DNA of 64,000 nt from a virus (lineage: Duplodnaviria > Heunggongvirae > Uroviricota > Caudoviricetes): positions 95,821-159,820 of IMG/VR virus record IMGVR_UViG_3300046820_002180; one strand, written 5' to 3'. The translations under genes and the position numbers were made by a program. This document shows positions 1-26,684 of the stretch, one piece after another (position 1 is the stretch's first letter; every line of letters starts with the position of its first letter). Below the pieces are notes generated by a model, which did not search any database, was not told the DNA's origin, and saw nothing but the letters and a program-made list of their open reading frames with translations.

Positions 1-1167
1 AACCTTACAGTTATCGAAAGTTCAAAAATCGGTATTTTAGGTGCTGGCGAAGGAAGTACACCAAATTTTGGGTTAATGTTGAATCTATTAGATATAAATC
101 ACGAAGAGTTTTTTGAAGAAACAAAATCAACAATTAAAGAGGGTTTAAATTTTACAAATTGGACATTAGATAATAGACAACCAAAACATCTATTTAGTGA
201 TTTTAAAAACAAAAAAAATATTTATTCAAAAGCTTTTCATTTTGACGGTAGATTAGTAGGTCAATATTTTAAAAAAATATCAATTGAAAGAGGTGTTAAT
301 TTTATCGACGATGAGGTTGAAAGTATTGAAGAAAATAATAATAATATACACACCATAAAATTAAAAAATAGTAACGAAATTAATAAAATTGATTTTGTAT
401 TTGATTGCAGTGGATTTTCTCGAATTGTAATTGACAAAGTTTTTAATGAGAAATGGGTAAGTTATTCTGAATACCTTTCATTAAATAAAGCCATAGGTTA
501 TTTCTTACCTCAAAATAAACAATTTGAGTTTAAAGATAAAACATATACTGAATTAGTTTCAATGAATTCAGGATGGATGTGGCAAATCCCATTGCAACAT
601 AGATGGGGATGCGGATATGTATTTAACGATTCATTCATAAGCGTAGAAGATGCAAAAAAAGAGGTTGAAAAATACGTTGGAAGTGAAATTACAATTCAAA
701 AGGTGTTTGAATTTAAACCGGGTAGATTCGAAAGAAGTTGGATTGGTAATAGTATATCTATTGGTTTATCGTATGGTTTTTTAGAACCATTAGAGGCAAC
801 ATCACTAATGTCGACAATTATGCAATTAAAGAAATTAATAGATATTAATTTTGATGAAAATCATAGTGATTCATACAATGAATTCTGTAAAAATGTAATG
901 GAACAAAATATGTATTTTATAAGGTTTCATTATTTGTGTGAGAGATTTGACACTCCGTTTTGGAAAAAATCTTTTTCTATGCCTATACCTGAAAAATTAA
1001 AAAATATATTAGACCCTAATAATTTTATGTCTTTAAAAACTAATACTGAAATTTTAAAAGAATTGGACTTAAAAGAAATTACTTACGAAACAATTATATT
1101 TGGAGTATACAATTATTCTGTAATTTTTAATAAAAATAAAAGGGAGATAAATGTAAAATTACTGTAA
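1..1167 (+). CDS. Flavin-dependent halogenase-like protein (tryptophan halogenase family), 5' end lies outside window
   Basis: Reading frame is open from nt 1 (NLTVIESSKIGILGAGEGST... upstream of listed Met at 76); contains WxWxIP-type motif GWMWQIPL followed by RWGCGYVF as in flavin-dependent Trp halogenases. Confidence 0.5.
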   Translation, partial: NLTVIESSKIGILGAGEGSTPNFGLMLNLLDINHEEFFEETKSTIKEGLNFTNWTLDNRQPKHLFSDFKNKKNIYSKAFHFDGRLVGQYFKKISIERGVNFIDDEVESIEENNNNIHTIKLKNSNEINKIDFVFDCSGFSRIVIDKVFNEKWVSYSEYLSLNKAIGYFLPQNKQFEFKDKTYTELVSMNSGWMWQIPLQHRWGCGYVFNDSFISVEDAKKEVEKYVGSEITIQKVFEFKPGRFERSWIGNSISIGLSYGFLEPLEATSLMSTIMQLKKLIDINFDENHSDSYNEFCKNVMEQNMYFIRFHYLCERFDTPFWKKSFSMPIPEKLKNILDPNNFMSLKTNTEILKELDLKEITYETIIFGVYNYSVIFNKNKREINVKLL

Positions 1168-1168
1168 T

Positions 1169-1822
1169 ATGGAAAAGTTATATTTTGACGAAACCACATA
1201 TATTTGGAAAATTAAATTAAATAAGTTGTCCGATAAAGACACATTGTTAAAAGAAGCTAATTTTGTTATAGAATCCCAACCAGATGTGAAAACCGATGGA
1301 TTTGGTTATAAAAAAGAATGGAACGGGGACTTAAATTTTTTAGGTAAAATAGACATCAAAACAAAAATGGATGAAATCGTTCAAATAGGAATTGACCATT
1401 GTAAGGATTTATATAGAGAAAATGACGTACTGTATAATAAAATTAACACCGACGCCTGGGTTAATGTTGTTCGTTCCATCAACCCCGTTCAACTACAATT
1501 TAAACACGAAGAACTGAGAGGGGTTGATAAATTTCACGTACACACAGATATAAACAAAGAAATGAAATCATTCATACCTCATTATACTTATGTTTACTAT
1601 ATTCAAATGCCAGATGTTATGAATGGTGAGGATGGGGTACTTTATTTTAAGGGAAAAAATAATAAAGAGTATTGGATTAGACCCGAAGAGGATGATTTGA
1701 TTATTATGGTTGCAGATATGCCACATAGTCCAAATAACGCACCAAATTCAACCGTCGATAGAATTGTAATTGCCGGAAACGTTGGGTTTGATTATATAAA
1801 AAAAGAAAAATCTTTAATATAA
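1169..1822 (+). CDS. 2OG-Fe(II) oxygenase-like protein
   Basis: HxD...H arrangement (FHVHTD ... MPHSPN) in a ~200 aa beta-rich protein; start 2 nt after upstream stop. Confidence 0.4.
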   Translation: MEKLYFDETTYIWKIKLNKLSDKDTLLKEANFVIESQPDVKTDGFGYKKEWNGDLNFLGKIDIKTKMDEIVQIGIDHCKDLYRENDVLYNKINTDAWVNVVRSINPVQLQFKHEELRGVDKFHVHTDINKEMKSFIPHYTYVYYIQMPDVMNGEDGVLYFKGKNNKEYWIRPEEDDLIIMVADMPHSPNNAPNSTVDRIVIAGNVGFDYIKKEKSLI

Positions 1823-1823
1823 A

Positions 1824-2393
1824 ATGTTCACAAAATACATTGAAAATTTTTTAACTTCTGATGAGTGCAAGTCAATAATAAAATTGGGGGAATCAATTGG
1901 ATTAATTGAAATGAAGTCATCACTTATAGTGAATGGAAAAGTAATGACTCAGAATGTTGAATACGGTGGTAATAAACGAATGGGCACTTATTTTACTAAC
2001 CAAATATTAGATACACCAATATTGAAAAGTTTAACTGATAAAATTATCACCTTATCAAATGAATTAAATCCATATAATGGAATCACGTATAATCGAATAC
2101 ACAATTATTCATTTAATAGATATGGTGAAGGGGATTTTTTGGATTGGCACCCCGATAGTCACGAAATTATAAATGGTGCAACAATAACCTATATAATTCA
2201 ATTGAACGACCAATATGAGGATGGAAATGTAAAATATATTGTAAATGAAATTGAACATTCAGTACCTAAAAAAGAAGGTAGTGTTTTCATTTTTGATTCA
2301 AATATTGTACATTCAGTAAAAGAAATAACAAGTGGAATTAGATATTCCATAAACGTATGGCCCTCCAAAGTAATTAGAAAATCCTTAATATAA
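1824..2393 (+). CDS. Prolyl 4-hydroxylase-like 2OG-Fe(II) oxygenase
   Basis: WHPDSH (HxD), distal HSV His and RYSINVW Arg motif typical of P4H-like 2OG oxygenases. Confidence 0.5.
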   Translation: MFTKYIENFLTSDECKSIIKLGESIGLIEMKSSLIVNGKVMTQNVEYGGNKRMGTYFTNQILDTPILKSLTDKIITLSNELNPYNGITYNRIHNYSFNRYGEGDFLDWHPDSHEIINGATITYIIQLNDQYEDGNVKYIVNEIEHSVPKKEGSVFIFDSNIVHSVKEITSGIRYSINVWPSKVIRKSLI

Positions 2394-3184
2394 TGTTAGT
2401 TGAAAATAAGTTTTTTTATTTGAGTTTACCAAGATGTGCATCAACAGCTTTTCACTATTCTTGTTTGGTTAATGATGTTAGAGTTCAAACACATAATGGT
2501 GAGTGGGAGTTAGCAAATTCGGATATTGATTTTAAATCGGTAGATAAAAAAGACTTAATGAACTACATCTATCACGGACACGAATCCTTAATTGATTTAC
2601 AAGGTAAATTTGGTAGAAATTACCCAATTATTGCAGTTAAGAGACAAAGACACGAAAGATTTTACTCATTATATAAACACGTTCTATTTGATTTAAAAAG
2701 AATGGGGTTTTTTAAGATTCATAAAAAGTTCTCTAAACTATCGTTAGATGAATTGTTCTTTTTTACAAAAGAAGATGTTGCAACTAAAAAACAAAGATGG
2801 GATAAAATTTGTGAATTTTTAATAGATTTGAAATTGATTGATGAAAAAATAGATATCTCGATAACATCAAAATTTAAAAAGTCTGAAGAAGAGTACTTCA
2901 AATCAAACACCAAAGGGTATGCAGTTAATATGATTGATATTTTATTAACTCCGTTATCTAATTGGACAAATAACGACCAAACAATAATTTGGTTTGACTT
3001 TAACGAATTAGATAAATTGGAAGAATGGGTATCGAATATTTTAGAAAAACCATTTGAACTTCATTCGGTTAATTCGAGTAAACATATGGAATGTGTAGTA
3101 ACCTTAGATGATGATTTTATAAAAAAATACAATAGTATTTATGATTATTACGACCTACCAAAATTAACCAAGACTTTAATATGA
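2393..3184 (+). CDS. Sulfotransferase-like protein
   Basis: N-terminal LSLPRCASTAF resembles the 5'-PSB loop (PKSGTT) and RQRHERFYSLY resembles the 3'-PB motif of sulfotransferases; start overlaps upstream stop (TAATG). Confidence 0.35.
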   Translation: MLVENKFFYLSLPRCASTAFHYSCLVNDVRVQTHNGEWELANSDIDFKSVDKKDLMNYIYHGHESLIDLQGKFGRNYPIIAVKRQRHERFYSLYKHVLFDLKRMGFFKIHKKFSKLSLDELFFFTKEDVATKKQRWDKICEFLIDLKLIDEKIDISITSKFKKSEEEYFKSNTKGYAVNMIDILLTPLSNWTNNDQTIIWFDFNELDKLEEWVSNILEKPFELHSVNSSKHMECVVTLDDDFIKKYNSIYDYYDLPKLTKTLI

Positions 3185-3468
3185 TAGATTACAAAGAAAT
3201 TTTTGAAGCTTGGAAAACATCATTTAACCCAACCCCTAAACAAGAGGAATTAGCGGGGAAAAGATTAAATGTTTGTTTGGGTTGTGAATATAGAAAAGAA
3301 GTTTTAAAGGGCGTAAAATGGTCAGCTTATTGTGGTGATTGCGGATGTCCTCTAAACAAAAAAGTCTTCTCAAAGAATTTTAATCCTTGTACTAAGGGTT
3401 ATTGGGAAGAAGTGGATTCAGATTATATAACACCTGTTAAAAATAAGAATAAGAGTACTTTAATTTAA
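3181..3468 (+). CDS. Small Cys-rich protein (putative zinc-binding)
   Basis: CLGC...YCGDCGC...C spacing; ATGA overlap with upstream gene. Confidence 0.45.
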   Translation: MIDYKEIFEAWKTSFNPTPKQEELAGKRLNVCLGCEYRKEVLKGVKWSAYCGDCGCPLNKKVFSKNFNPCTKGYWEEVDSDYITPVKNKNKSTLI

Positions 3469-3498
3469 TATATACATATATAATAAAAAAATAAACAT

Positions 3499-3506
3499 TA
3501 TAAATA
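3499..3506 (+). promoter_or_regulatory. TATAAATA box (T4-type late promoter-like) upstream of the 3560 gene
   Basis: Exact TATAAATA octamer in a 91-nt AT-rich intergenic gap, about 54 nt upstream of the ATG. Confidence 0.2.
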
Positions 3507-3559
3507 TCCTTTTCTAATAATATTTTTATAGATATATTTATTGTAAGGAAACAAAATTT

Positions 3560-5050
3560 ATGAAAGCAACTATAATTGGTAGTGACTTACTACAAACGGG
3601 AGACTCGGTGAAGTTTTTGGAAATAAACACAAACACCACAATTTACAATGAGGGTGCGGATTTGCTTGATTATACCTCATTATTCACGATTTTAGTTAGT
3701 AACAACATCACCGAATTCTACTTAATATGGACAGAAGGGGATGCTTATAAACCCTTAACTGAACAGTATAGATTTAAGAAAATACTAGAAGAAAAGTGTC
3801 AAGAGAATAATATGTCATTTACTGAATTTATTGTACCGGTTGGTTCAGTAACAGTACCATATATTGAAGATGATACACACAAGTTCATATTAAGACAATC
3901 CTTTGATACCACTGCGTTGGTTGATGAGACATATTGTGCCGATAAATTTGAATTTTTCTCATTAATGAGTGGGTCAACATATGTACCAAATACATATTTC
4001 ACATCCACCTCGTTAAATTTAGACACACTTAGTGATGTGGACTACACAACTATAACAAATCCAAATGTCTTAGTAAAACCAAGAAACCCAAGTTATAATC
4101 CAATGGATTATCCTGCTCTGTATACTGTTACAGGAAATACAGAATTATCAGATATAAAAAATGGTTTAGAAGAAAATCATTTAGTTCAGGAATTCATATT
4201 TTCAGAAGATAACTTAGTTCAAGGTAGATACTCAATCATAAGAAGTATTGATATTATTTACGGACCCGATTTGGACATTATCCATATGGGTGGGTACACA
4301 CAATCCACTATTTTACCGTTAACATTTACAGAAGATGAATTTGTTACAGGAACTAATAAGTTAAATCAAAAAAGTAGATACAAATATATTACTAAGGAAT
4401 TAGGTAACTACGCAAAGAATGATTATCACACTGATGATGATAGTGTTATATTAAAATATGACGGAACATTATTAGATGTTGATACAATAGAATTGGGTGA
4501 TTATGTTCGTTCAATTGATTACGTAGATTTAAATGATAACCACGCAGCTAAATTTGAGCAAAGTAAGATTGAAACATTTGGGTGGGATAGTACAGTTGCA
4601 CAAGACAACTCAACATTAATTCAAACCGGAACCACATTAAATGCAATGGTGTCTGCTGCTGTTGATACGATTTACATCAGAATAACATTATCTGATGGTA
4701 GAACTTGGACCGACGCACCATCAGCAACTTATTATATTGAGGAGAAAGACTCAATTTCAACCAAATTCGAAAAAGTCAATAAAATGTATGTTGGTGACAA
4801 ATTGGTAATCACAGACGCGAATACCAATCTATTAACAACTGTTGAAATTACTGGTTTGGAAATGGAACACGCACAAAAAACCATTTACAGTTTGGACTTT
4901 GAATCTTCGGATTTATTCTTAGTCGACATTGGTGACGGTGATTTCAGTGTGATGCACAACACTTGTTGGTGTCCTTGGAACTATTGTGGACATTGGTGTA
5001 ATAGTTGGTACTGTCCTAGTTGTTCAAATACACCTTTACCGAAATTATAA
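3560..5050 (+). CDS. Hypothetical 496-aa protein with C-terminal Hint/intein-like domain followed by a 29-aa Cys/Trp-rich tail
   Basis: Long ORF after an intergenic gap. Residues ~296-467 show intein-like blocks: SVILKYDGTLLDVDTIELGDYV resembles block A with Ser1, and IYSLDFE...DFSVMHN resembles blocks F/G ending in His-Asn. The +1 residue is Thr and the tail is TCWCPWNYCGHWCNSWYCPSCSNTPLPKL. Confidence 0.6.
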   Translation: MKATIIGSDLLQTGDSVKFLEINTNTTIYNEGADLLDYTSLFTILVSNNITEFYLIWTEGDAYKPLTEQYRFKKILEEKCQENNMSFTEFIVPVGSVTVPYIEDDTHKFILRQSFDTTALVDETYCADKFEFFSLMSGSTYVPNTYFTSTSLNLDTLSDVDYTTITNPNVLVKPRNPSYNPMDYPALYTVTGNTELSDIKNGLEENHLVQEFIFSEDNLVQGRYSIIRSIDIIYGPDLDIIHMGGYTQSTILPLTFTEDEFVTGTNKLNQKSRYKYITKELGNYAKNDYHTDDDSVILKYDGTLLDVDTIELGDYVRSIDYVDLNDNHAAKFEQSKIETFGWDSTVAQDNSTLIQTGTTLNAMVSAAVDTIYIRITLSDGRTWTDAPSATYYIEEKDSISTKFEKVNKMYVGDKLVITDANTNLLTTVEITGLEMEHAQKTIYSLDFESSDLFLVDIGDGDFSVMHNTCWCPWNYCGHWCNSWYCPSCSNTPLPKL

Positions 5051-5062
5051 AATTAAAATATT

Positions 5063-5206
5063 ATGGCACAAAAAGAAAGAATAGAAAGACCTGCACAAAC
5101 AATTAAAGCAATTGTTGCACCCATTTCAAGTGAGTTAAAAACAAAAGTAGCAACAGCATTTCAAGCAGTTGTAACGGCTATTAAAGTTAAGCACTTGGGG
5201 GAATAA
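5063..5206 (+). CDS. Small 47-aa ORF (MAQKERIERPAQTIKAIVAPISSELKTKVATAFQAVVTAIKVKHLGE)
   Basis: ATG-initiated ORF filling the 167-nt gap between the 3560 and 5218 genes; below the ORF-track size cutoff. Confidence 0.2.
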   Translation: MAQKERIERPAQTIKAIVAPISSELKTKVATAFQAVVTAIKVKHLGE

Positions 5207-5217
5207 GATAATGTTTT

Positions 5218-6039
5218 ATGAAGTTATTCACATATGGAGATAGTTGGACTGAGGGTGTTGGGGGTAATGTTGATGAGGAATTAACAACAGAAATTCCTGA
5301 GGAAAGAACTAACATAAGACAAAAATATTGTTGGCCGAAACACTTATCGGAACTACTTGAATGTGAAGTTAAAAATAACGGAGTTGGTGGGTTCTCGAAC
5401 AACTCAATATTCAATACAGTTTGCAATCAATTAAAAAATGAAATCATCACTCAAGATGATTTTGTTGTTATTATGTGGTCCTCATCCTTAAGAGACCAAT
5501 TACCATTTTTTCCAAATGAGAATAGTTTTCATATTTGGGGTCAAAGATATAAGAGTAAGCAACATCTTTTCAAATATATTTTCGATGGTGTTAGTGGAGA
5601 TAATGTAAACTATAATAGGGCGGAAAAAAATTTTAGAGATTACTACATTAGTAATTTATTTAATGACGCATACTATGACATAGTTAATCAAAACTACATA
5701 CTACATTTACAATTTATGTTTAAGGAATTGGGAATTAGATATGTTTTTTGTGACGCATTTGACACTATGATTAATAAAAACATTGATGTTCTGGTTGATA
5801 AAACTCATTTGATTGAGGGTGAAAGATATTGGGGTTATATAGATAAAACAATGGCTAATTTATTAATCGATACAAATAGAAAAGATGTTTGGGAGGATAA
5901 TAATCGATGGGTAGATACTACCGCAGGTAAACACCCAAGTAACAATGGTTATAAATTAATTGCGGAAGAATTATATAAATTCATAAACGAAGGTGATTTA
6001 CTAACTAATAATAAAAAGAAAAATTCATATCTACTATGA
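5218..6039 (+). CDS. SGNH/GDSL-family hydrolase (paralog 1 of 8)
   Basis: N-terminal block I YGDSWTEG, block II NNGVGGFSNNSIF, C-terminal block V GKHPSNNGYKLIAEEL. Confidence 0.55.
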   Translation: MKLFTYGDSWTEGVGGNVDEELTTEIPEERTNIRQKYCWPKHLSELLECEVKNNGVGGFSNNSIFNTVCNQLKNEIITQDDFVVIMWSSSLRDQLPFFPNENSFHIWGQRYKSKQHLFKYIFDGVSGDNVNYNRAEKNFRDYYISNLFNDAYYDIVNQNYILHLQFMFKELGIRYVFCDAFDTMINKNIDVLVDKTHLIEGERYWGYIDKTMANLLIDTNRKDVWEDNNRWVDTTAGKHPSNNGYKLIAEELYKFINEGDLLTNNKKKNSYLL

Positions 6040-6602
6040 ATTATAACATAAACAATAATTTTTGTGATAGAGAAACCGCTAAAGATATAATTGATTTTTG
6101 TCTTGAGTTCGGTGAACCATTTTCATACAAACCAACTGAAAAATGGGATTGTAGAAGAATGTACGATTCCAATTTTAAAGAAAGAATTATTAATTTATTA
6201 ACAACCAATTACAAAAATGGAGAGTTTAAATTATGGTTTGATTACTCAACATTTAATTTAAAAAATTTCAACATTAGTTTAACATCGTATTATGATGGTA
6301 GGTATCTTAATCTACATAAAGATAAGTCGAGTGAATTAACTACAGTTATTGTTCTTTCTGACGATTTTGAAGGAGGTCAATTTGTGTTAACCCAAGATGA
6401 AAATCCACCATATGACTTTGAGACTTTGGGTGGTTTAACTTTATGTGATTTAAAATTGGGTGATAGTATTTCATTCAACGGTTCTGAAACATATCACGGA
6501 GTTCTGCCGGTAACTAAGGGAATAAGATATGCATTGAATGTATGGATGACCGAAACAGATTTTGATTATCCGAGGGTTAAAAGTAATAAAACATTACTAT
6601 GA
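6036..6602 (+). CDS. Prolyl 4-hydroxylase-like 2OG-Fe(II) oxygenase
   Basis: LHKD (HxD), YHGV His and RYALNVW motif; ATGA overlap with upstream gene. Confidence 0.5.
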   Translation: MNYNINNNFCDRETAKDIIDFCLEFGEPFSYKPTEKWDCRRMYDSNFKERIINLLTTNYKNGEFKLWFDYSTFNLKNFNISLTSYYDGRYLNLHKDKSSELTTVIVLSDDFEGGQFVLTQDENPPYDFETLGGLTLCDLKLGDSISFNGSETYHGVLPVTKGIRYALNVWMTETDFDYPRVKSNKTLL

Positions 6603-7096
6603 GTGTATTAATCATCTCCTTACCAAGAACGGGTTCTACTTCATTGTTACACAAAATAGCAAAAGAGAAGAATTTAAAACCTTTGTTTGAACCATTTGAT
6701 GGTACTGGTAGAGTTAATTATAATGGAGAAAAAAATGTTGTGGTTAAAACAATAATATGTCATCATCATAGTAATTTAGAATTGTCTAAAGAGTTTGATG
6801 AGGTTATATTACTAACAAGAAAAAATGTAATAGAGTGTACAGAATCACACGCATATCAAACATACTTTTCAAAAAAGAAAAACTATAATTCAAATACTCC
6901 ATATGTTTATGAAGAGGTTCCTTCAGAAATATACGAATTATGTTATAACGACATTATAAAATGGAATAAGGAAATTGGTGAATTATCTGTCAAACTTAAT
7001 GTTCCAATAACTTACTATGAGGATATTTTCGATTTCAATAATGAAGGTAGATTAAGAAAAGGTAATAGAGATAAAACAATTAAGAAATTAATTTAA
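6599..7096 (+). CDS. Sulfotransferase-like protein
   Basis: N-terminal ISLPRTGSTSLLHKI matches the PAPS 5'-phosphosulfate binding loop; LTRKNVIECTESHAYQTYF resembles the 3'-PB motif. Confidence 0.45.
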   Translation: MSVLIISLPRTGSTSLLHKIAKEKNLKPLFEPFDGTGRVNYNGEKNVVVKTIICHHHSNLELSKEFDEVILLTRKNVIECTESHAYQTYFSKKKNYNSNTPYVYEEVPSEIYELCYNDIIKWNKEIGELSVKLNVPITYYEDIFDFNNEGRLRKGNRDKTIKKLI

Positions 7097-7099
7097 CAT

Positions 7100-8344
7100 A
7101 TGAAAATATTCGTTCATCATTATTATACTGATATGTTATTTCAAAAGTTCTTTCATAATGTTGAGAACAAAGAAATGGTTGAAGTAGATAACACTAATGG
7201 AGCAATTAGGGATGTCACATTTGAGTACGGAGGAAAGAACTTTGAAGTGTCATTTAATCCTGAAATAAATGATGATGAGGGGATTCATATAATTGATTTC
7301 TTTGGTGCACTTAGACAAAGAGGTCAAGATACTAATTTTGAAAACACTGAACATAGAGGTTCGGATTCTTTTGCTATGATTGAAAGAATGGCTGACCTCA
7401 TTCAAGATAAAAAGAATTGGGTGGTTTGTTTGTTTAGAACTGAAAAGATATTCATTAAGAACGACAATACAAAAGTAAAGACAGACGGAACAATACAAAT
7501 TGAAGAAATTGAAAATCAAATTCTCAGGTTATCGAATCATTTTATATTAACTGATAATATTTTCACCAACAAAATAGTATTAAGTAAACACCCAAACTTG
7601 TACAATCCATTCACTAATATTATTTTTCAATGGAATGAAATGATTAGTATTAGGTGGTTCTATGATTATAAAAATGTTAGTGATGTTATAGTTCCAAAAT
7701 ATAAAATGGGCTATTCGGTTAGAGCACATAAACCACTTAGGGTTAAAATTGCCGAGGAGTTAACACAAATCGAAGACATCTTCGTTTCCCAAACAAATGT
7801 AATTGAAAAGGATTCAGTACAACCAAAGTATAGAAAAATTGAAGGTGCTTACTTAAATGATTACGATTCTGAAATTGATTTTCAGAACTTAAGGATATTA
7901 ACAAACATAACTGTAGGTCTTGACTTTTTCTTGAGGATTTTACCAATGTCTAAAATTCAAATATGTGATGAATCTTGGGCCCACAATTCCGCCAACTACC
8001 ATAGTCAATATCTAAGTGAAAAGTCGTTGGGTTTAATTTTAGCTAACGTTCCTTTTGTTTCCACTCACTCATATCCATACGATTGTATTATGGATTTGAT
8101 TGGAATTAGAAAACATCCTTTTTATGATGAGTCCAAACAATACCAAGGGAACGCTAAACTATTTGCGGATTTTGTGAGAACATTCATTAGTGATTTTGAT
8201 AACAATTATCAACTATGTAAGGATTGGATTAAAGAATGTCACGACATTTTTATTGATAGATTACATAAAGAAAATTCAATGTTGGATATGATAGTTAATG
8301 GAGTTATAACTAACGAACCCATACCAAAACGACCATTACTATAA
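7100..8344 (+). CDS. Hypothetical protein
   Basis: 414-aa ORF inside the coupled operon; no motif recognised. Confidence 0.5.
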   Translation: MKIFVHHYYTDMLFQKFFHNVENKEMVEVDNTNGAIRDVTFEYGGKNFEVSFNPEINDDEGIHIIDFFGALRQRGQDTNFENTEHRGSDSFAMIERMADLIQDKKNWVVCLFRTEKIFIKNDNTKVKTDGTIQIEEIENQILRLSNHFILTDNIFTNKIVLSKHPNLYNPFTNIIFQWNEMISIRWFYDYKNVSDVIVPKYKMGYSVRAHKPLRVKIAEELTQIEDIFVSQTNVIEKDSVQPKYRKIEGAYLNDYDSEIDFQNLRILTNITVGLDFFLRILPMSKIQICDESWAHNSANYHSQYLSEKSLGLILANVPFVSTHSYPYDCIMDLIGIRKHPFYDESKQYQGNAKLFADFVRTFISDFDNNYQLCKDWIKECHDIFIDRLHKENSMLDMIVNGVITNEPIPKRPLL

Positions 8345-9042
8345 TGAGAATAGTATTCACATATCTACCAACCAGACTTAAAGAGATTACTGAAATTTAC
8401 TTAAAGTATTCAATTCAAAGTTTGAATATACAAGGTGAAGTTCCTATAATATATTCCGATATTGATTATTTTAAAAATTTAAACTTAATATATGATTGGG
8501 TTGAATTGTCCTTACCGGATAGATACCGAAAACCAACAATATGGTCATATCCTAAATTAAAAGTTCTATCTGAAATTCAGTTCCCTTTTATACATTTGGA
8601 TAATGATTTAGTAGTTGGGGACATTAAAAAATTATTAGATATCATTAAAAAGGATAAACTAAATTTATGTTACAAACATCCTCTATCGAGTTCACAAATC
8701 GAGGACTTTACTGAACTACATAAACTATATTCAAATACCTCGTTAGATTATACCGAATTAAATAACACCTCAATAATTGCGTCTCGTAACTTTAGAAATG
8801 TGAATAAAGCATATTCCGAAGTTTTGGAAATTATTGAAGAAAACTACGATTTTTTTAATAAACGTTATCACGGAATACCACCAATAACCTTAAACCAACA
8901 ATATTTAAATTTATACTTTGATGATATAAATTACCTATATAAACATAACCCATCGTTTGGTGAGTTATCGATGAACGGAGTTTGTCACATTGCGGATAAA
9001 AATAAAGTTAGTCATTTCAATAGAAACAAGAATTTAATATGA
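8344..9042 (+). CDS. Hypothetical protein
   Basis: 232-aa ORF whose start overlaps the upstream stop (TAATG). Confidence 0.5.
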   Translation: MRIVFTYLPTRLKEITEIYLKYSIQSLNIQGEVPIIYSDIDYFKNLNLIYDWVELSLPDRYRKPTIWSYPKLKVLSEIQFPFIHLDNDLVVGDIKKLLDIIKKDKLNLCYKHPLSSSQIEDFTELHKLYSNTSLDYTELNNTSIIASRNFRNVNKAYSEVLEIIEENYDFFNKRYHGIPPITLNQQYLNLYFDDINYLYKHNPSFGELSMNGVCHIADKNKVSHFNRNKNLI

Positions 9043-9866: not shown

Positions 9867-12800
9867 ATGAATATATTTGACGCACACATATCGGGTTCCC
9901 TGTCGGTATCCTCTTCGGCGGAAATACAGGGAGACTTAAGGGTACTTGGAATAATTAATGCAACCATTAGTGGTAACACCACAAGTGCAGATACCGCATC
10001 TTTTGCTCCGAGATATACCCTAACCTCAAGTTTTAATACTTTTACCTCATCGTACACGACCGGTTCTTTTACGGGTTCGTTTATTGGTGATGGTGCTAAT
10101 TTATATAATATCCCCGCTAGTGGGGTTACAGGATTAAATCTAAACAAAATCACAAGTGGTAGTGTTAGTGCGTCAATATCACCAGATAGAGGTTTAGAGG
10201 TTAATACCGATTTAAATGTTGCGGGTATTATTACTGCAAGAGAAATCCATACATCAATTGTTACTTCATCAGTTCTTTTTGAATCTGGCTCAACAATATT
10301 TGGTAACACTTTAGATGATACTCACCAAATTACAGGTTCGGCTAGTGTTACGGGTTCATTATCATTAAATGGACAACTTGTTGAAACAAATAGATTATCG
10401 GTTACCACATTCAATTCTTACACGTCAAGTATCAATCCAAGAATTGATGCGTTAGAAATCTCAACATCAAGTTTGAATGGTTTTACAAGTTCGATTAATA
10501 CAACAATCAAAAACAAATTAAATTCAGACGGTGTAATTTCTGGTTCCTCACAAGTTATCTATAGTGGATTAACAGGAATACCTTCAAGTATTGTTAGTGG
10601 GTCAGTACAAGTCAACATTACAGGAACAACAGGATACTCAACATTCAGTTCAAGTTTATCATCGAGTATTAATAGTTTATCAGCATCAATTGCAACAACC
10701 GATTCTAATCAAAATGGTAGATTAAATTCTATAGAAGGTGTAACAGGGTCTATTAGTTTACTTAACACCTATACAGGTAGTAACAACACAGTAATAGGAA
10801 CTTTACAAACTGCAACAAGTAGTTTGAACTCATATACAAGTAGTAACACTACAAATATAAATGCAATTCATACTGCAACTAGTTCATTAAATACATTTAC
10901 ATCAAGTGCTACAGGTAGATTAACATCCATTGAAGGCGTAACCGGTTCAATTGGTGCACTTAATACTTACACCGGTAGTAACAACACGGTTATTGGTACG
11001 TTACAAACATCCACAGGAAGTTTGAACACGTTTACTAGTTCACAAATTACTCATAATAATGCTGTTAACACATCAACTAGTTCATTAAATTCTTACACAT
11101 CAAGTGCATCGAATAGATTAGTTGCGTTGGAAACATCTACAGGAAGTTTGAACTCATATACAAGTAGTAACACTACAAATATAAACTCAATTCAAACTTC
11201 AACAGGAAGTTTGAATGCTTTTACATCAAGTGCGGGTGGAAGAATAACTTCATTAGAAAGTGCAAGTAGTAGTATTAGAAGTGACTTTAATAGTTTTACA
11301 AGTTCCAATAACACAGTTGAGACAACTCAGAACAGTAGACTAACGTCTATTGAAGGAGTTACAGGTTCGATATCAATTTTAAACACATATACAGGTTCAA
11401 ACAATACAGTAATAGGAACATTACAAACTGCGACGAGTAGTTTAAATACTTTTACATCGAGTGCTACAGGTAGACTAACATCACTTGAATCAGCAAGTTC
11501 TTCAATTAGAACAGATTTTAATTCATTTACGAGTTCTAATAATTCAATTGAGGCGACTCAGAATAGTAGACTAACATCACTTGAAACAACAACAGGTAGT
11601 TTAAATTCATATACAAGTAGTAACACTACAAATATAAACTCAATTCACACCGCAACTGCAAGCTTGAATTCATTCTCTTCAAGTGCTGGTGGTAGATTAA
11701 CTTCTATTGAGGGCGTAACCGGTTCAATTGCTGCGTTGAATACTTACACAGGTTCGAACAACACCTCAATCAATGCGTTGAATTCTTACACGAGTAGTAA
11801 CACTACTAATATTAATGCGATTCATACCGCAACAAGTAGTTTGAATAGTTTCACAAGCAGTGCTTCGGGTAGATTAACCGCGTTAGAAACTGCATCAAGT
11901 AGTTTAAATTCTTACACAAGTAGTAACACAACCGCAATTACTGCGTTGAATTCATTTACCACATCATTTAATACGGCATTTGGTTTAAGTGGTGCAAACG
12001 TCACCGTTAAAGGTAATTTAACCGTACAAGGTTCCACTACTCAAGTAGATTCAACAACTGTTAATATTGGTGATAATATTATTCAATTAAATGGTACAGG
12101 TGCAACTAATGCGGGTATCGTTGTAAGAGATGCAACATCACCAACACTTACTTCGGGTTCATTTCTTTGGGATTCAACAAACGATAAGTGGGTTGCTGGT
12201 CCGTTAGGTTCCGAAGATGAGGTTGTGTTAAAGACAGCATCACAAGCATTAACAAACAAAACAATTAGTGGAGGTTCTAACACGTTAACAAATATCGCTA
12301 ATGCTTCACTTACAAATAGTTCAATATCAATTGCGGGTACAAGTACATCATTAGGTGGTTCAATAACCGCAGCGACAATACTAACATCCACAGGTGTTTG
12401 GTCAGGTTCGGCTCAATTACCCGCAGGAGTTATAAGTGGTTCCGCTCAGGTAATTGCTAATTTACCCGCAGGAACGGTGTCAGGGTCATCACAAGTATTA
12501 AGTGGAACTGGCATTTGGTCGGGTTCTGCACAATTACCATCAGGAGTGGTATCAGGTTCGTCACAAATTACTTTCTTAAGTATTAGTAGTATACCAAGTG
12601 GTTTAGTGTCAGGTAGTTCACAGGTATTAGCAGGAACAACAATACATTCGGGTAGTTTCTTTAACGGAATTTCTGTTGTATCAGGCTCCGCACAGATTTC
12701 ATTTAATGGTATAACTGATAAACCGGCATTAGTGTCTGGTAGCTCACAAATTACTTTCTTAAGTATTAGTAGTATACCAAGTGGTTTAGTGTCAGGTAGT

Positions 12801-14705
12801 TCACAAATTACATTAACAAGTACACAAGTTACCAATGGTTTAGGATACACACCATATAACGCAACCAATCCAAATGGATATATTAGTTCATACACTGAAA
12901 CTGATACACTGGCGTCGGTAACCGCACGTGGGGCAAGTTCGTCCACACAAATTACTCTTTCGGGTAAGTTAAGAATGAGTTCTGATTTAGGTGTAGATGC
13001 AGGTAATGCATTATATTTTGGTAGGGAAGAATCTTTTGGTGGTTCTAATACAGGCGGTGACGATTATGGTTATATAACATTTGATAATAACAGTACAACT
13101 TATAGTGATGCTGGCGGTACTGAAAGGTCAGTACTTAGAATAGGTACATCTAATGATGGTGTAGGTAATGTGGAAGATAACTTAGCCCTTGAATCTACCG
13201 CCAACATATATTTAAATCCTGCAGGTGTCATATATCGTGGTAATAAAGCAACAAGATATACAATTTGGGATTCGGGTAACTTAACTAACCTTAATCAATT
13301 AACAAACGGACCTGGTTATATAACAGGAATTTCATTTGCAAACGTTTCATCTAAACCAACAACGATTAGTGGTTACGGAATTACGGATGCTATTACAACA
13401 AGTAATATTGGTTCACAATCTGTATCATACGCAACAACCGCAGGTTCACTAACCAGTATGAACATATCTCAGTTTACAAACAACTCTGGTTATTTAACAA
13501 GCGTAACAAATATTAGTGGTACTGCAGGTAGTGAAACTCTCGCAACCGTTACAGGAAGAGGTGCGAGCACAAGTACCGCAATTTCTATTAATAATACTTT
13601 GACGGTTACAAGTGGAAGGGTTATTGCCAGAACAGGTGGTGCGAATACCTATGGTATATTTTCTGGTTATGATAATAATAACCATATGATGACATTTAGA
13701 GCCGCGGTTTCGGGACCTACAGCAACACCAACTGTTACTGCTGGACACCAAACGACATTTATTGAATATGCCGAAGCGGGAGATGTAACAGGTTGGTTTT
13801 TTAAATCTTCATCTTCAACTAACTATGAAGAAATTGCTAGAATTACTAGAACTGGTATTAATTGGAACGGAAATACAGTTTATCACTCAGGTAATATACC
13901 TACGTGGAACCAAAATACCACAGGAACGGCATCTAACATTACTGCATATACAATTAATCAAAGTGTCGGTACCGGCAACTCCCCAACATTTGCTGGAGTA
14001 TCAGCATCACAAGTGGCAGCAACATCTACGGCAGATGCTACTGGATTATCACTTAGAAGTACCTCGGAAGTTTTAAGTGGTGAAGGATGGTGTACCGCAT
14101 TATATTGTTATAATAATAATGATGGTTTCTTAGTGGTAGGTAGAGATGCAAGTGCCAATGCTCGACCTGTTTTCCACGTAGGTGGTTTTAACAACGCAGG
14201 ACACGGAGGTTGGAGTGACGGAGATGCAATGGTTACTTTAGTTAGAATGGACGGAGTTAAAACCACGGGTAGTGCTAATTCATATAGAGGTTTATCTAAC
14301 TCATCATATTATTCTAATATTGTAAAAACAACATCAAGAACCGAGTTTAAAGATTCACAAGGAGCACACTATTTCAACGGCACATTAACGACCGGTGGTA
14401 ATATGACAGTTGGTGGTACGTTAACAGAAAACTCATCAATCCGATATAAGAAAGATATTGAAACCATTAGTTACGGTCTGGATAAAGTTTTACAATTAAG
14501 AGGTGTTACTTACGTTAAAAAAGAGAATAACGTTAAAGAAATGGGTGTTATTGCTGAAGAAATTGCCGAAATTTTACCTGATGTGGTACTTTACGATTCA
14601 GAAGGTAAAGTAGATTCCGTATCTTATGGTAGAATTACTGCAGTGTTAATCGAGGCGATAAAAGATTTGAAAAAAGAAATAAACGAATTAAAGAATAATG
14701 GCTAA
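9867..14705 (+). CDS. Tail fibre / tail spike protein with C-terminal intramolecular chaperone (peptidase S74-like) domain
   Basis: 1612-aa Ser/Thr/Gly/Asn-rich protein with long internal tandem repeats; C-terminal ~110 aa (SIRYKKDIETISYGLDKVLQLRGVTYVKK...GVIAEEIAEILPDVV...YGRITAVLIEAIKDLKKEINELK) matches the autoproteolytic chaperone domain of phage tail fibres/endosialidases. Confidence 0.75.
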   Translation: MNIFDAHISGSLSVSSSAEIQGDLRVLGIINATISGNTTSADTASFAPRYTLTSSFNTFTSSYTTGSFTGSFIGDGANLYNIPASGVTGLNLNKITSGSVSASISPDRGLEVNTDLNVAGIITAREIHTSIVTSSVLFESGSTIFGNTLDDTHQITGSASVTGSLSLNGQLVETNRLSVTTFNSYTSSINPRIDALEISTSSLNGFTSSINTTIKNKLNSDGVISGSSQVIYSGLTGIPSSIVSGSVQVNITGTTGYSTFSSSLSSSINSLSASIATTDSNQNGRLNSIEGVTGSISLLNTYTGSNNTVIGTLQTATSSLNSYTSSNTTNINAIHTATSSLNTFTSSATGRLTSIEGVTGSIGALNTYTGSNNTVIGTLQTSTGSLNTFTSSQITHNNAVNTSTSSLNSYTSSASNRLVALETSTGSLNSYTSSNTTNINSIQTSTGSLNAFTSSAGGRITSLESASSSIRSDFNSFTSSNNTVETTQNSRLTSIEGVTGSISILNTYTGSNNTVIGTLQTATSSLNTFTSSATGRLTSLESASSSIRTDFNSFTSSNNSIEATQNSRLTSLETTTGSLNSYTSSNTTNINSIHTATASLNSFSSSAGGRLTSIEGVTGSIAALNTYTGSNNTSINALNSYTSSNTTNINAIHTATSSLNSFTSSASGRLTALETASSSLNSYTSSNTTAITALNSFTTSFNTAFGLSGANVTVKGNLTVQGSTTQVDSTTVNIGDNIIQLNGTGATNAGIVVRDATSPTLTSGSFLWDSTNDKWVAGPLGSEDEVVLKTASQALTNKTISGGSNTLTNIANASLTNSSISIAGTSTSLGGSITAATILTSTGVWSGSAQLPAGVISGSAQVIANLPAGTVSGSSQVLSGTGIWSGSAQLPSGVVSGSSQITFLSISSIPSGLVSGSSQVLAGTTIHSGSFFNGISVVSGSAQISFNGITDKPALVSGSSQITFLSISSIPSGLVSGSSQITLTSTQVTNGLGYTPYNATNPNGYISSYTETDTLASVTARGASSSTQITLSGKLRMSSDLGVDAGNALYFGREESFGGSNTGGDDYGYITFDNNSTTYSDAGGTERSVLRIGTSNDGVGNVEDNLALESTANIYLNPAGVIYRGNKATRYTIWDSGNLTNLNQLTNGPGYITGISFANVSSKPTTISGYGITDAITTSNIGSQSVSYATTAGSLTSMNISQFTNNSGYLTSVTNISGTAGSETLATVTGRGASTSTAISINNTLTVTSGRVIARTGGANTYGIFSGYDNNNHMMTFRAAVSGPTATPTVTAGHQTTFIEYAEAGDVTGWFFKSSSSTNYEEIARITRTGINWNGNTVYHSGNIPTWNQNTTGTASNITAYTINQSVGTGNSPTFAGVSASQVAATSTADATGLSLRSTSEVLSGEGWCTALYCYNNNDGFLVVGRDASANARPVFHVGGFNNAGHGGWSDGDAMVTLVRMDGVKTTGSANSYRGLSNSSYYSNIVKTTSRTEFKDSQGAHYFNGTLTTGGNMTVGGTLTENSSIRYKKDIETISYGLDKVLQLRGVTYVKKENNVKEMGVIAEEIAEILPDVVLYDSEGKVDSVSYGRITAVLIEAIKDLKKEINELKNNG
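10700..11950 (+). repeat. In-frame tandem repeat region inside the tail fibre gene
   Basis: Repeated units (S/T)SLN(S/T)(Y/F)TSS..., RLTS(I/L)EGVTGSI..LNTYTGSNNTVIGTLQT(A/S)T recur many times at protein and nucleotide level. Confidence 0.6.
12561..12805 (+). repeat. Two exact 62-nt direct repeats (12561-12622 and 12744-12805) inside the tail fibre gene
   Basis: tcacaaattactttcttaagtattagtagtataccaagtggtttagtgtcaggtagttcaca occurs twice, encoding SQITFLSISSIPSGLVSGSSQ. Confidence 0.6.
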
Positions 14706-16476: not shown

Positions 16477-16944
16477 ATGGAAAAGATATCATTAAAATTA
16501 AAAGACGTACTTCAATTAGAAAGTGAAATTAACGGATTTACTAATCCTGAGACTGGTGAAAAATATTATGAAGGATTTATAAATCAAAAATTATCAATCA
16601 TCTTAAAATACGATTTGACTGAAACTACTAAATTTTTAGAAACTGAAAGAAAAAAAGTAGATGGATTGAGAGATGAATTAGTGACCAAATATGGTAAGAT
16701 GGACAATAATGGTAGAATTGTTGTTAATATGCATATTTTCGAAAAAGACGAAAATGGTGTCATTATCTCAAAAAAATTAAATCCCGATTACTTAGAATTT
16801 GAAAAGGAATACACCCAATTATTAGATAAAGAGATTGAGGTAGAATACCCCGAAATTACAAAAGAGGATTTAGTAAATGCAGGAAAAACAAAAGACAATT
16901 ACATAGTTTTATTCAGACTAATAAAAAATAAGGAGGTTAAATAA
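16477..16944 (+). CDS. Hypothetical protein
   Basis: 155-aa ORF directly downstream of the consensus promoter; its stop lies inside a bidirectional hairpin. Confidence 0.5.
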   Translation: MEKISLKLKDVLQLESEINGFTNPETGEKYYEGFINQKLSIILKYDLTETTKFLETERKKVDGLRDELVTKYGKMDNNGRIVVNMHIFEKDENGVIISKKLNPDYLEFEKEYTQLLDKEIEVEYPEITKEDLVNAGKTKDNYIVLFRLIKNKEVK

Positions 16945-16951
16945 CCTCCTT
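16930..16951. terminator. Bidirectional hairpin terminator between convergent genes
   Basis: AAGGAGGTT aaat AACCTCCTT inverted repeat overlapping the stops of the 16477..16944 (+) and 16937..18049 (-) genes. Confidence 0.45.
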
Positions 16952-18049
16952 TCTTATTTCTATCATCATATTACCAATTTGATATTCACCCACCTCATAG
17001 TAGGGTATCGACAACCTCAATTTATGTAAGGTTCTAATATCCATATCATCAAATGGTGCAGTTTCATAAATCATCACATCTACGTTATCTGTGAACGTAA
17101 ATTTCGACCTTAAATCATAACGGGTATTCTTCTGTTCATTTTCAATATAGTCCTCGGGAATTGTCCCTATTTCGATTTTATCGAAGAATGGTTCAATCTC
17201 CATAAAACGATTTCTATTGTTGGTGGTTAAACCCATTGTGAAGATTTTATACTTAAAGTTCTTCTCTTCCCAATATCTTAGTTCATTGAATGCTGAGAAT
17301 GGTATTCCCCACTTCCTAACAAAGTTTCTATTGGATGATACTTCGATGATTCTTCTATCAACTCTCATATCATCACTGAATCTTGAAGTCTGCGAAACAA
17401 AATGATAAACAATTGCAGAGTCACAAGTCTTTAGTTCATAACCTTTTAGTTTCGCACGAACCAAGAAATCGTCATCTTCACAGAAACACGGAACAAAACT
17501 AAACCCATCAAAACCACCCACATCATTAAACATCTTTTTAGTTCCGCTCATAAAGAATACTGCACCATCATATAGGTTCTTACTATCCTTCCACTGATTA
17601 ACGTAATTGTTGAAATGAAAATAATCAAAGTCATCAAAACTAGAACCTAAATTCAATAATACTTTACCTGGTCTTAAGTGACCTTTGAATATTGGAGGCT
17701 CTACTGTGGTGTAAGAGATGATAGTATTTGGATTCTCATCCAATAACGATTCTAAGTTCTCAAGAAAGTATTCACCTAAAATCATATCGTTATGAATCAA
17801 TACTAATTTATCAGTGTCAACTAACTTGATTCCTGCGTTATATGTGTCCGAGAATGTTATTCTATCATCATCGTGTATGAATGATAAGTTATCATCATTT
17901 AATGACTCTAACCACTCTTTCGTTCCATCACTTGAACCGCCACTACTAATTACAAATGGTGCTTCAGGATATAACAGACGAACCCTCTCATAACATTTTT
18001 TTGTTAGGTCTAATTTATTGTAGACCGCCATTACTAATGATATACTCAT
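16937..18049 (-). CDS. Glycosyltransferase family 2 protein
   Basis: N-terminal ISLVMAVYNKLDLTKKCYERV...SSGGSSDGTKEWL matches the GT2 Rossmann-like N-terminus; 370 aa. Confidence 0.55.
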   Translation of the reverse strand: MSISLVMAVYNKLDLTKKCYERVRLLYPEAPFVISSGGSSDGTKEWLESLNDDNLSFIHDDDRITFSDTYNAGIKLVDTDKLVLIHNDMILGEYFLENLESLLDENPNTIISYTTVEPPIFKGHLRPGKVLLNLGSSFDDFDYFHFNNYVNQWKDSKNLYDGAVFFMSGTKKMFNDVGGFDGFSFVPCFCEDDDFLVRAKLKGYELKTCDSAIVYHFVSQTSRFSDDMRVDRRIIEVSSNRNFVRKWGIPFSAFNELRYWEEKNFKYKIFTMGLTTNNRNRFMEIEPFFDKIEIGTIPEDYIENEQKNTRYDLRSKFTFTDNVDVMIYETAPFDDMDIRTLHKLRLSIPYYEVGEYQIGNMMIEIRKEVI

Positions 18050-18669
18050 CTTATTTTACTTATTACGTTCGACCAAGCAATTCCGTCTTCTCTAATAACA
18101 GGACTAAACTCAGCTTTTAATACCGTTTTTGATATATGTCCACCCATTTTCCAGTTTAACATTTGAAATGCTTGTTTAGGTCCTTTGTGAATTAAAAAAT
18201 TATCACCATACCATACTTTTAATTCTTCAGGTATAGGTCGATATGAATTTTTATGTATGAAGAATAAACAAGCAAACCCACCAATCAATTGATAAATTGG
18301 AGTTAATAAAAATCTACCCTTAGGTTCTGTCCAACACCCATCACCTAATCCAATGATACCCTTATCTTCAGTTATGCTATCGTGAATTTTATCAAGTAAA
18401 GACCAGTCAGTTGTTATGTCATCATTAAGAAACATTAACTTATCTTCTTTTGCAATTGAATAACCTTTATTCCAAGCGGGATTCACATATGTGTTTCTAC
18501 CTTCTTTAATGTAAACTAATTTTGGTATTTCTTCTTTTATGTGAATCTCATCATCATTTGTGTTATCAATCAAAATCAATTCACTAACTAAAGGATGTGA
18601 AGTAACTTCTTTAACTAGTTCAACAACACCATCAGGCACGAACATCGTCGGCATTATTACACTTATCAT
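18046..18669 (-). CDS. Glycosyltransferase-like protein (GT2-like)
   Basis: MISVIMPT...LILIDNTNDD N-terminus and internal DxD-like LNDDITTD; ATGA overlap with neighbour. Confidence 0.4.
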   Translation of the reverse strand: MISVIMPTMFVPDGVVELVKEVTSHPLVSELILIDNTNDDEIHIKEEIPKLVYIKEGRNTYVNPAWNKGYSIAKEDKLMFLNDDITTDWSLLDKIHDSITEDKGIIGLGDGCWTEPKGRFLLTPIYQLIGGFACLFFIHKNSYRPIPEELKVWYGDNFLIHKGPKQAFQMLNWKMGGHISKTVLKAEFSPVIREDGIAWSNVISKIR

Positions 18670-18672
18670 ATA

Positions 18673-19671: not shown

Positions 19672-19672
19672 T

Positions 19673-20293: not shown

Positions 20294-20296
20294 ATT

Positions 20297-20515
20297 TTAT
20301 GCTCTTTGATTAAATCCTCCGTTTATTCTTCTTGTTAGTTGATTCACAATGTCGTTATCAATTTCACGAGAAATTGTTTCAGAAAGTGCTCTCGATAATT
20401 CTGATACAATATCAGTATAATTGACACCATCATCCACTAATTCTGGTCTCCAATCTACACGTAACACTCTTGCCTTTTTAGGAATACCTCGAAAAAATTT
20501 AAATTCACTAACCAT
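20297..20515 (-). CDS. FKFF-motif small protein family member (start taken at internal Met MVSEFKFF)
   Basis: Listed ORF 20297..20557 carries an internal Met followed by SEFKFF, identical to the N-termini of six + strand small proteins; central motif NQLTRRINGGFNQ resembles their VTNRYIN.YNQF motif. Confidence 0.4.
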   Translation of the reverse strand: MVSEFKFFRGIPKKARVLRVDWRPELVDDGVNYTDIVSELSRALSETISREIDNDIVNQLTRRINGGFNQRA

Positions 20516-22018: not shown

Positions 22019-22019
22019 A

Positions 22020-26485: not shown

Positions 26486-26684
26486 AGAACCAAAATACCT
26501 AACTGATTTTTTTATATATAAAAAGAAACATCATTGGTTTATGATACCAACAATTGTTTTCTTTTACAATAAAGAAACTTTTTTTGAGACCGGTATATCG
26601 ATGCCAGCGTGTGGTTTATCGTTTAGATGGTTAACATTTTTTATGGGTGTACAAATACAAAAAAATGCATACTACAAAAAATAA
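26478..26684 (+). CDS. Hypothetical small protein
   Basis: 68-aa ORF. Confidence 0.3.
   Translation: MIKEPKYLTDFFIYKKKHHWFMIPTIVFFYNKETFFETGISMPACGLSFRWLTFFMGVQIQKNAYYKK

Follow-up and report, generated by a model that had tools for sequence, protein, structure and literature searches.

A phage protein combining an ATP-grasp ligase fold, a degenerate Hint domain and a lysine-bearing, Cys-rich tail

A 64,000-nucleotide stretch of DNA from a tailed virus (Caudoviricetes; IMG/VR record IMGVR_UViG_3300046820_002180, positions 95,821 to 159,820), referred to here in its whole length as the window, encodes at positions 3560–5050 a 496-residue protein in which a ligase-like domain of the ATP-grasp fold, a Hint domain and a short Cys-rich tail follow one another. 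We tentatively propose, with a confidence that falls just short of even, that this open reading frame (ORF), carried by a large uncultured phage, specifies a three-part self-processing protein composed of a ligase, a Hint domain that would cleave only at its C-terminal side and a Lys-bearing cargo, such that the cargo would be released as a peptide and the ligase would act upon it. The two folds, the pattern of residue conservation, the modularity of the cargo and the linkage to particular neighbouring genes recur throughout the ligase-Hint family; cleavage, pairing of the cysteines and action of the ligase on the cargo are what we infer from them. The parts of the gene are as follows.

3560..5050, plus strand: whole ORF, 496 residues, comprising ATP-grasp domain, Hint domain and Cys-rich tail
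3560..4414, plus strand: putative circularly permuted ATP-grasp (acid-amine ligase) domain, residues 1–285, with the E21-x-N23 Mg2+ motif N-terminal
4427..4960, plus strand: degenerate Hint domain, residues ~290–467, in which only the C-terminal cleavage residues are kept
4955..4960, plus strand: His466-Asn467, predicted site of cleavage by Asn cyclisation (cut after N467)
4961..5047, plus strand: 29-residue cargo tail TCWCPWNYCGHWCNSWYCPSCSNTPLPKL, with the K495 codon at 5042–5044

The Hint domain and its family

A sequence-only reading of the window had described a Hint-like domain ending in His-Asn (HN) and followed by a Cys-rich tail, and fold, profile alignment and conservation all bear this out; the C terminus of the protein reads ...GDGDFSVMHN-TCWCPWNYCGHWCNSWYCPSCSNTPLPKL. 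The family alignment, from which the residue column counts given below are taken, contains 136 sequences of 21%–95% identity. An AlphaFold model built from it (predicted local distance difference test, pLDDT, 89; predicted template modelling score, pTM, 0.82) is far better than that built from 22 close homologues only (pLDDT 47.6), and its top 47 Foldseek matches in the PDB are all Hint folds, residues ~290–467 adopting the horseshoe-like shape of that domain. The family profile matches the KlbA intein (E 2.5e-9), PolII inteins (7e-5), and Hedgehog (4e-3) in the PDB, and when hhalign is used to compare it with 23 bona fide Hint domains the probability is 98.8% and the E value 5e-17, the alignment running end to end with HN opposite HN.

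The residues of the N-terminal Hint reaction have drifted. The pair D301-G302 occupies Hint positions 12–13 in both alignments, and position 1 is therefore H290; S295, put forward in the sequence-only reading as a Ser nucleophile, falls at position 6, the 'T' of the CFxxGT motif, and the proposal thus stemmed from an error of register. Position 1 holds no conserved nucleophile in the family (H52/K18/G13/I9/S9/L9). The block-B His, which the sequence-only reading had described as not evident in this protein, is lost in the family (S55/A25/T19/C10), and the Thr that follows N467 can no longer be given meaning as a +1 nucleophile, this column reading A28/S14/P13/Y12/V10/T7. By comparison, the F-block column at D451 reads D90/H27, H466 is kept in 129 of the 136 sequences and N467 in 134, and the HN pair is retained by 465 of the 475 members aligned; members that keep HN share ~21% pairwise identity. 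A true intein was considered and rejected for want of a position-1 nucleophile, a block-B His and a conserved +1 nucleophile, and no intein-less allele with contiguous flanks was found.

In inteins, Asn cyclisation is driven by the F- and G-block His residues together with the terminal Asn, and C-terminal cleavage arises when this cyclisation is uncoupled from the first steps of the reaction (review PMC7765530). Judged from the columns above, the machinery for N-terminal chemistry in the ligase-Hint family has decayed, with the residues for Asn cyclisation under strong constraint, and for this reason the domain is predicted to cut once, after N467. Cleavage at the C-terminal side in preference to splicing, as had been favoured before, is what the retained HN and the lost block-B His would logically entail.

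A word index search recovered 544 close metagenomic homologues of the protein, and the family comprises 321 cluster representatives at 50% identity. All homologues derive from metagenomes or from viral contigs in IMG/VR, the longest measuring 335 kb, and relatives of the window are found in contigs of 280–335 kb. Neither megablast nor tblastn found a relative among 50,697 isolate phages, with one search matching inteins only, so that no cultured phage could be named as a model, and a scan of 185,579 species genomes (GTDB) gave just two contigs of metagenome-assembled genomes, one of 248 kb, which are probably mis-binned phage DNA. Taken as a single sequence, the protein has no match in Pfam, PHROGs, or NCBIfam; a PDB sequence search with a shallow alignment likewise gave none. 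The combined ATP-grasp-Hint architecture is absent from the viral protein models of BFVD (TMq ≤0.29), and a search of the literature yielded no description of ATP-grasp joined to Hint, nor of Hint with a Cys-rich cargo, in phages. The earlier statement that the gene is phage-encoded and undescribed accordingly stands.

Cargo tails and their lysine

Following N467, the window tail contains six Cys, four Trp, two Tyr, four Pro, and a single Lys (K495), with neither Asp nor Glu, and its Cys framework is CxCx4Cx3Cx4Cx2C; the composition given by the sequence-only reading was right for Cys, Trp and Tyr and one short for Pro, of which it counted three. Across the family, G, S, P, Y, N, and W abound in the tails and charged residues are scarce. 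The number of Cys is even in 293 of the 299 tails that contain any, the exceptions being large domains that are not Cys-rich; six are found in 190 tails, eight in 67, and ten in 11, and tails with 4, 12, 14, and 16 also occur. Such counts favour an arrangement in which every Cys would be paired in a disulfide. The tails share with conotoxin-type peptides only their even Cys count, Cys-richness, and W/Y/P-rich composition, and not a signal-peptide architecture. A metallothionein-like tail was rejected on account of the abundance of aromatic residues.

Lys makes up 3.4% of tail residues, and at least one is present in every one of 269 short Cys-rich tails (exactly one in 231), whereas Asp and Glu are missing altogether from 111 of these. 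The tail diverges more than the enzyme domains do at every level of divergence. The ratio of nonsynonymous to synonymous substitutions (dN/dS) is lowest in the Hint domain (0.049), intermediate in the N-terminal domain (0.084), and 0.19–0.27 in the tail.

The cargo that follows HN is of five classes: (a) Cys-rich tails of 20–70 residues, which are the most frequent; (b) a Cys-rich segment succeeded by one bona fide Hint; (c) a Cys-rich segment succeeded by an intramolecular chaperone of the S74 type; (d) bona fide Hint domains, from one to three in number, straight after HN, often with an HN-C junction; and (e) a stub of 3–7 residues. Pfam identifies the extra modules of these relatives as PT-HINT (2.6e-21), Intein_splicing, and Peptidase_S74. 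The Lys persists throughout: it follows the last HN in all 75 Hint-cargo proteins, 46 of which end exactly in HN-K. Six proteins with a Cys-rich segment plus Hint have no Lys in the Cys-rich part and carry KK after the Hint, which looks to have been inserted between the ...GGG and the K of an ordinary tail. Similarly, Lys immediately precedes the S74 cleavage Ser in seven of ten S74 forms, and cleavage there would restore the ...K C terminus of the plain tail forms. Cleavage after N467 is supported by this modularity, the segments after HN being exchangeable and repeatedly bounded by other self-cleaving modules.

Relatives in which one, two or three bona fide Hint domains follow HN in tandem include P0243, P0250–P0252, P0255, and P0265 and loci L083–L162, and most end with exactly one Lys after the last HN. 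Because their +1 residues are non-nucleophilic, these tandem domains are best classed as resembling bacterial intein-like (BIL) domains, not inteins.

The ATP-grasp domain, its partners, and the proposed mechanism

By structure comparison, residues 1–285 match acid-amine ligases of the ATP-grasp fold, with 3kak among the Foldseek matches. The N-terminal VKFLEINTN aligns, albeit weakly, to the E-x-N Mg2+ loop of biotin carboxylase and D-Ala-D-Ala ligase, and since this motif lies at the N terminus the domain is presumably circularly permuted, in the manner of eukaryotic glutathione synthetase. D9, E21, N23, T24, D104, R112, D122, Y125, K173, and R228 are each at least 90% conserved family-wide, and the domain for this reason looks catalytically active. 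Fold, E-x-N Mg2+ motif, and conserved Lys and Arg place it among ATP-grasp enzymes; at the sequence level no membership of an ATP-grasp family was detectable in Pfam or NCBIfam. The fold neighbours RimK, TTL, LysX/LysW, and GspS join amines to the carboxylates of proteins or peptides.

Two small genes accompany the ligase-Hint gene.

3181..3468, plus strand: 95-residue Cys-rich (CxxC...CxxCGCP...C) Zn-ribbon-like partner protein
5063..5206, plus strand: 47-residue ORF MAQKERIERPAQTIKAIVAPISSELKTKVATAFQAVVTAIKVKHLGE, ending ...AIKVKHLGE, directly downstream of the gene

The 95-residue protein follows the pattern W..NPT..Q..LA..R..C..C....C..CGCP..KK.FS...C..KW and may be a Zn ribbon, recalling LysW, the partner of the ATP-grasp enzyme LysX. 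It adjoins the gene in 148 of 158 loci with Cys-rich tails versus 11 of 78 with Hint-only cargo, and lies within 200 nt of it in 124 of 167 cases. Its only database match is PHROG 13558 (function unknown), and it was not found among the 50,697 isolate phages. A small ORF takes the position of the 47-residue one in 237 of 240 loci, spanning all three subfamilies, and hhalign indicates that the window-like and Hint-cargo groups of this ORF are homologous (probability 94.5%, E 8e-8). It has no database match and is more conserved than the large gene, with 100% identity in some loci compared to 92%–95%.

In the mechanism proposed, the Hint domain would act once as an asparagine lyase, converting N467 to a succinimide and breaking the N467-T468 bond, so that a 29-residue peptide with six Cys and one Lys would be released. 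When lysis takes the peptide out of the reducing cytoplasm, its Cys would most likely pair into three disulfides. Before release, the ligase would most likely act in cis on the cargo, acylating or ligating either the amine of K495 or the C-terminal carboxylate; this step is suggested by the joining of ligase and cargo in one protein, by a Lys that is universal, by the scarcity of other groups able to react, and by the reactions that relatives of the fold perform. The 95-residue and 47-residue proteins would serve as accessory partners. An ATP-grasp domain, a Lys in every tail and two conserved partner genes together point to a ligase-coupled system and not to a plain precursor; all three had escaped the sequence-only reading.

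Several points weigh against this account. Pfam Hint models give no match to the window protein as a single sequence, and the tail itself is modelled with pLDDT <50. The tail dN/dS, being below 1, denotes relaxed and not demonstrably diversifying selection, and positive selection on the tail was not shown. Even Cys counts could also stem from cytoplasmic Zn(Cys)4 or Zn2Cys6 sites. The ligase is tied to the cargo only by fusion and the conserved Lys, and the ligase-Hint core evidently works without a Cys-rich peptide, given that the cargo of many relatives is made up of Hint domains and one Lys.

By a first alternative, no cleavage would occur, the Hint domain would be a structural or substrate-binding module of an ATP-grasp enzyme with HN kept for folding, and the tail would be a permanent Zn-binding or disulfide knob. 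Loss of the N-terminal catalytic apparatus, CxxC and CPxC spacings along with the even Cys counts, the strong conservation of the whole protein, and its cytoplasmic character (no signal peptide is evident) would suit such a role. HN and the F-block position are, however, the best conserved residues of the domain, in contrast to the drifted residues of N-terminal chemistry; a fixed knob is ill matched by cargo that is swapped for self-cleaving Hint or S74 modules or a bare Lys; and 6, 10, and 14 are not multiples of four, in tails that are aromatic-rich and hypervariable. We therefore consider the absence of cleavage unlikely.

The three-part self-processing protein works most like the release of cargo by A-type BIL domains or by pretoxin-HINT. 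A-type BIL domains carry a conserved His-Asn and are sited in variable regions or proteins (review PMC7765530). They resemble the window Hint in this C-terminal His-Asn, in a non-nucleophilic +1 residue, and in lying beside variable regions (Amitai 2003; Dassa 2004, via PMC7765530), but they keep an N-terminal Cys, where position 1 of the window Hint is not conserved, and they belong to secreted or surface proteins of bacteria, whereas the window Hint is confined to phages, fused to ATP-grasp, and followed by a short Cys-rich cargo. With pretoxin-HINT (PF07591) are shared a conserved N-terminal part, the Hint, an exchangeable cargo predicted to be freed autoproteolytically, and adjacent small genes. 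The window Hint nevertheless lies below the PF07591 threshold, which only the extra Hint domains of relatives reach, and unlike polymorphic toxins the protein has no trafficking or secretion domain, its N-terminal part being ATP-grasp. The cargo here is a 25–60-residue knot in place of an enzymatic toxin domain, and the small neighbouring genes, unlike immunity genes, are more conserved than the cargo. The Hedgehog C-terminal domain (1at0) differs in bringing about N-terminal cleavage via a Cys thioester, with cholesterol transfer; the window Hint has neither an N-terminal nucleophile nor a sterol-recognition region and should cleave C-terminally.

On the ligase side, no sequence-level membership could be detected with GspS, YgiC, eukaryotic glutathione synthetase, RimK, TTL, or LysX-LysW, and a fusion of ATP-grasp ligases to Hint with cargo is undescribed. 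Graspetides (microviridin-type), which are ribosomally synthesised and post-translationally modified peptides, likewise combine an ATP-grasp ligase with a variable ribosomal peptide and tailoring enzymes. Their precursor, however, is separate and bears a leader that is removed by a protease, whereas here enzyme and peptide are one polypeptide split by a self-cleaving domain. Graspetide omega-ester or omega-amide macrocycles can moreover be ruled out as the general product because 111 of 269 tails, that of the window included, have no Asp or Glu.

If cleavage does occur, the family would represent a natural case in which a Hint domain has been left with nothing but a C-terminal asparagine lyase function, by which a small peptide is freed from an enzyme scaffold, and probably a route for the release of a small knotted peptide by a phage that has not been reported before. 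It would also disclose a large, unnoticed class of fast-evolving and probably disulfide-knotted peptides, with hundreds of tails, in abundant uncultured aquatic phages. A compact, self-cleaving domain with C-terminal activity only, and a natural library of knotted peptides, would be of use in protein engineering. The ligase fusion, obligatory lysine, and two mini-genes suggest chemistry beyond proteolysis, and a categorically new mechanism is plausible should ligase and Hint prove to be coupled.

The enzyme island and the remaining alternatives

The gene and its two small partners are embedded in a run of enzyme genes on the plus strand.

76..1167, plus strand: Trp halogenase, N terminus cut by the window edge (363 of 414 residues)
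1169..1822 and 1824..2393, plus strand: 2-oxoglutarate (2OG) oxygenases
2393..3184, plus strand: P-loop-like 263-residue protein
3499..3506, plus strand: T4-late-promoter-like box TATAAATA, 54 nt upstream of the ATG (low confidence)
5218..9042, plus strand: downstream island with an SGNH/GDSL-like protein, a 2OG oxygenase, a 165-residue protein, and two proteins of unknown function

Relatives of at least 60% identity keep the order halogenase, oxygenases, 263-residue protein, 95-residue protein, ligase-Hint gene, SGNH-like protein, oxygenase, 165-residue protein. The box TATAAATA equals the T4 late promoter consensus and lies in an intergenic gap that is the only one of appreciable size within the operon; it occurs just four times on the plus strand within the 64 kb. 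Its exact form is found upstream of the gene in 13 of 53 unique loci of close relatives and in 9 of 54 of distant ones, where 1.6% per 150 nt would be expected.

The enzymes had led the sequence-only reading to view the tail as a conotoxin-like core, whose Trp would be brominated or chlorinated, Pro hydroxylated, and Tyr sulfated by the neighbouring gene products before release by the Hint. W, Y, and P are indeed abundant in the tail, and the conserved island order and an APS (adenosine 5'-phosphosulfate) kinase just upstream in one close relative, L081, would suit the idea, the latter by way of sulfation dependent on 3'-phosphoadenosine 5'-phosphosulfate (PAPS). The pairing breaks down, however, beyond this lineage. 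Across the 160 loci of two distant subfamilies, an oxyB-like 2OG oxygenase lies near the gene in 93 and an stB-like gene (165-residue family) in 52, which is to its credit, but a halogenase in only one. Close relatives with no halogenase within 10 kb still have 3–4 Trp in their tails, and Trp content, when tested, did not track halogenase presence. Conversely, halogenase homologues of 30%–36% identity are carried by 63 isolate cyanophages and by pelagiphage HTVC008M, in which neither the ligase-Hint protein nor the Zn-ribbon partner was found. A similar cyanophage cluster of carbamoyltransferases, halogenase, and 2OG oxygenases has been described by Iyer and colleagues (2021) and read as synthesis of a halogenated amino-acid or sugar metabolite or as polysaccharide decoration (PMC7824862). 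The sulfotransferase assignment is weak or absent: 5 of 12 members of the 165-residue family (6599..7096) match Sulfotransfer_3 weakly (best E 0.019), and the 263-residue family (2393..3184) matches no sulfotransferase family. The ATP-grasp domain and the obligatory Lys are also left without a part to play. Such decoration is hence improbable as a general account, though a pairing of the enzymes with the tail Trp, Pro, and Tyr within the window's own lineage is possible.

The chemistry suggested by the ligase and its lysine might explain islands of 2OG oxygenase, sulfotransferase-like, and halogenase genes in large marine and freshwater phages. The proteins of the island also share a C terminus, K-x-[TS]-L-[IL]-COOH, which ends 11 consecutive proteins in 76..9042, every enzyme noted by the sequence-only reading included (VKLL, KSLI, KSLI, KTLI, STLI, SYLL, KTLL, KKLI, RPLL, KNLI). 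Elsewhere in the window it ends only 5 of ~83 other proteins, as follows.

23930..24622, 26665..27309, 35026..35445, 53495..54241, and 57340..57648: K-x-[TS]-L-[IL] ends outside the island

The motif is carried by 54%–67% of ORFs downstream of the gene in three subfamilies versus 22% upstream in two distant subfamilies, and in distant lineages, too, it marks arrays downstream of the gene (loci L083–L242). Around the halogenase of cyanophage P-SSM2 a comparable ending is found in 1 of 25 proteins; that near-absence, and the rarity of the motif elsewhere in the window, led us to reject it as a general trait of tight T4-like operons. Its frequency drops from 78% to 27% as the gap to the next gene widens, although codons for its terminal residues vary and it is still at 46% where the next gene is 41–120 nt away. 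The motif could be a protein-level signal (for docking, as a ligation substrate or as a degron) or an mRNA-level signal for translational coupling.

One elaboration of the three-part reading, which we think a speculative and rather unlikely one, is a single-turnover ligate-then-release machine, in which an amide would be built on the cargo lysine and the Hint would then free the conjugate. The acyl donor would be a small acid from the tailoring enzymes, the 47-residue partner, or the K-x-L-I-ended proteins, and the product a knotted peptide bearing the modification or, in HN-K forms, a lysine that bears it. If true, viruses would thereby have a new way of making ribosomally templated natural products or of tagging proteins.

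More doubtful still is an alternative centred on the lysine as scaffold or tag, in which the Cys-rich peptide would be optional: the ATP-grasp domain would ligate a carboxylate to the Lys after HN, this being an island-made small acid, the C terminus of the 47-residue protein, or the K-x-L-I C termini, and the Hint would free the conjugate. It draws on the universality of that Lys, down to the proteins ending exactly in HN-K, on the near-constant downstream ORF, and on a gene that heads or sits in an island sharing the motif in all subfamilies, which is not so around the P-SSM2 halogenase. An intramolecular graspetide-type link is impossible in the 111 tails free of Asp and Glu, and the amine-to-carboxylate ligation by the fold neighbours RimK, TTL, LysX/LysW, and GspS would provide the chemistry. 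This evidence is, however, wholly circumstantial, and the scarcity of the motif at wider gene gaps would also be in keeping with mRNA-level coupling. A search of the literature yielded no precedent for such a system, and we know of none.

A role as a virion host-range determinant, in which the hypervariable knot would be delivered or ligated to a tail fibre and serve as its receptor-binding tip, is very improbable; a gene 4.8 kb upstream of a 1612-residue S74 fibre, the S74 modules (otherwise typical of fibres and spikes) that end some family members, a variable tail suited to an arms race and the late-promoter-like box would all be in keeping with this, but an ATP-grasp enzyme as a fibre component is without precedent, the protein has no fibre-like repeats or trimerisation motifs, no PHROG structural match was found, and tail dN/dS is below 1.

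Other phage genes in the window include those for an RnlA-like ligase/tail-fibre attachment protein, thymidylate synthase, and DNA methyltransferases. The 1612-residue S74 protein (9867..14705, plus strand) is Ser/Thr-rich, contains many ~35-residue repeats (SSLNSYTSSNTTNINxI...), ends in Peptidase_S74 and is presumably the long tail fibre; its length differs among close relatives, with 1129 residues in L081. In that 92%-identical relative, positions 1..7600 hold, before the halogenase, an APS kinase, a carbamoyltransferase, a GT25 glycosyltransferase, a DUF6734 protein, and an extra 2OG oxygenase. In the window, a nucleotide-sugar epimerase and two glycosyltransferases lie on the minus strand at 16937..23375, interrupting the otherwise plus-strand layout, and GC skew reverses in the same place, at 18–24 kb.

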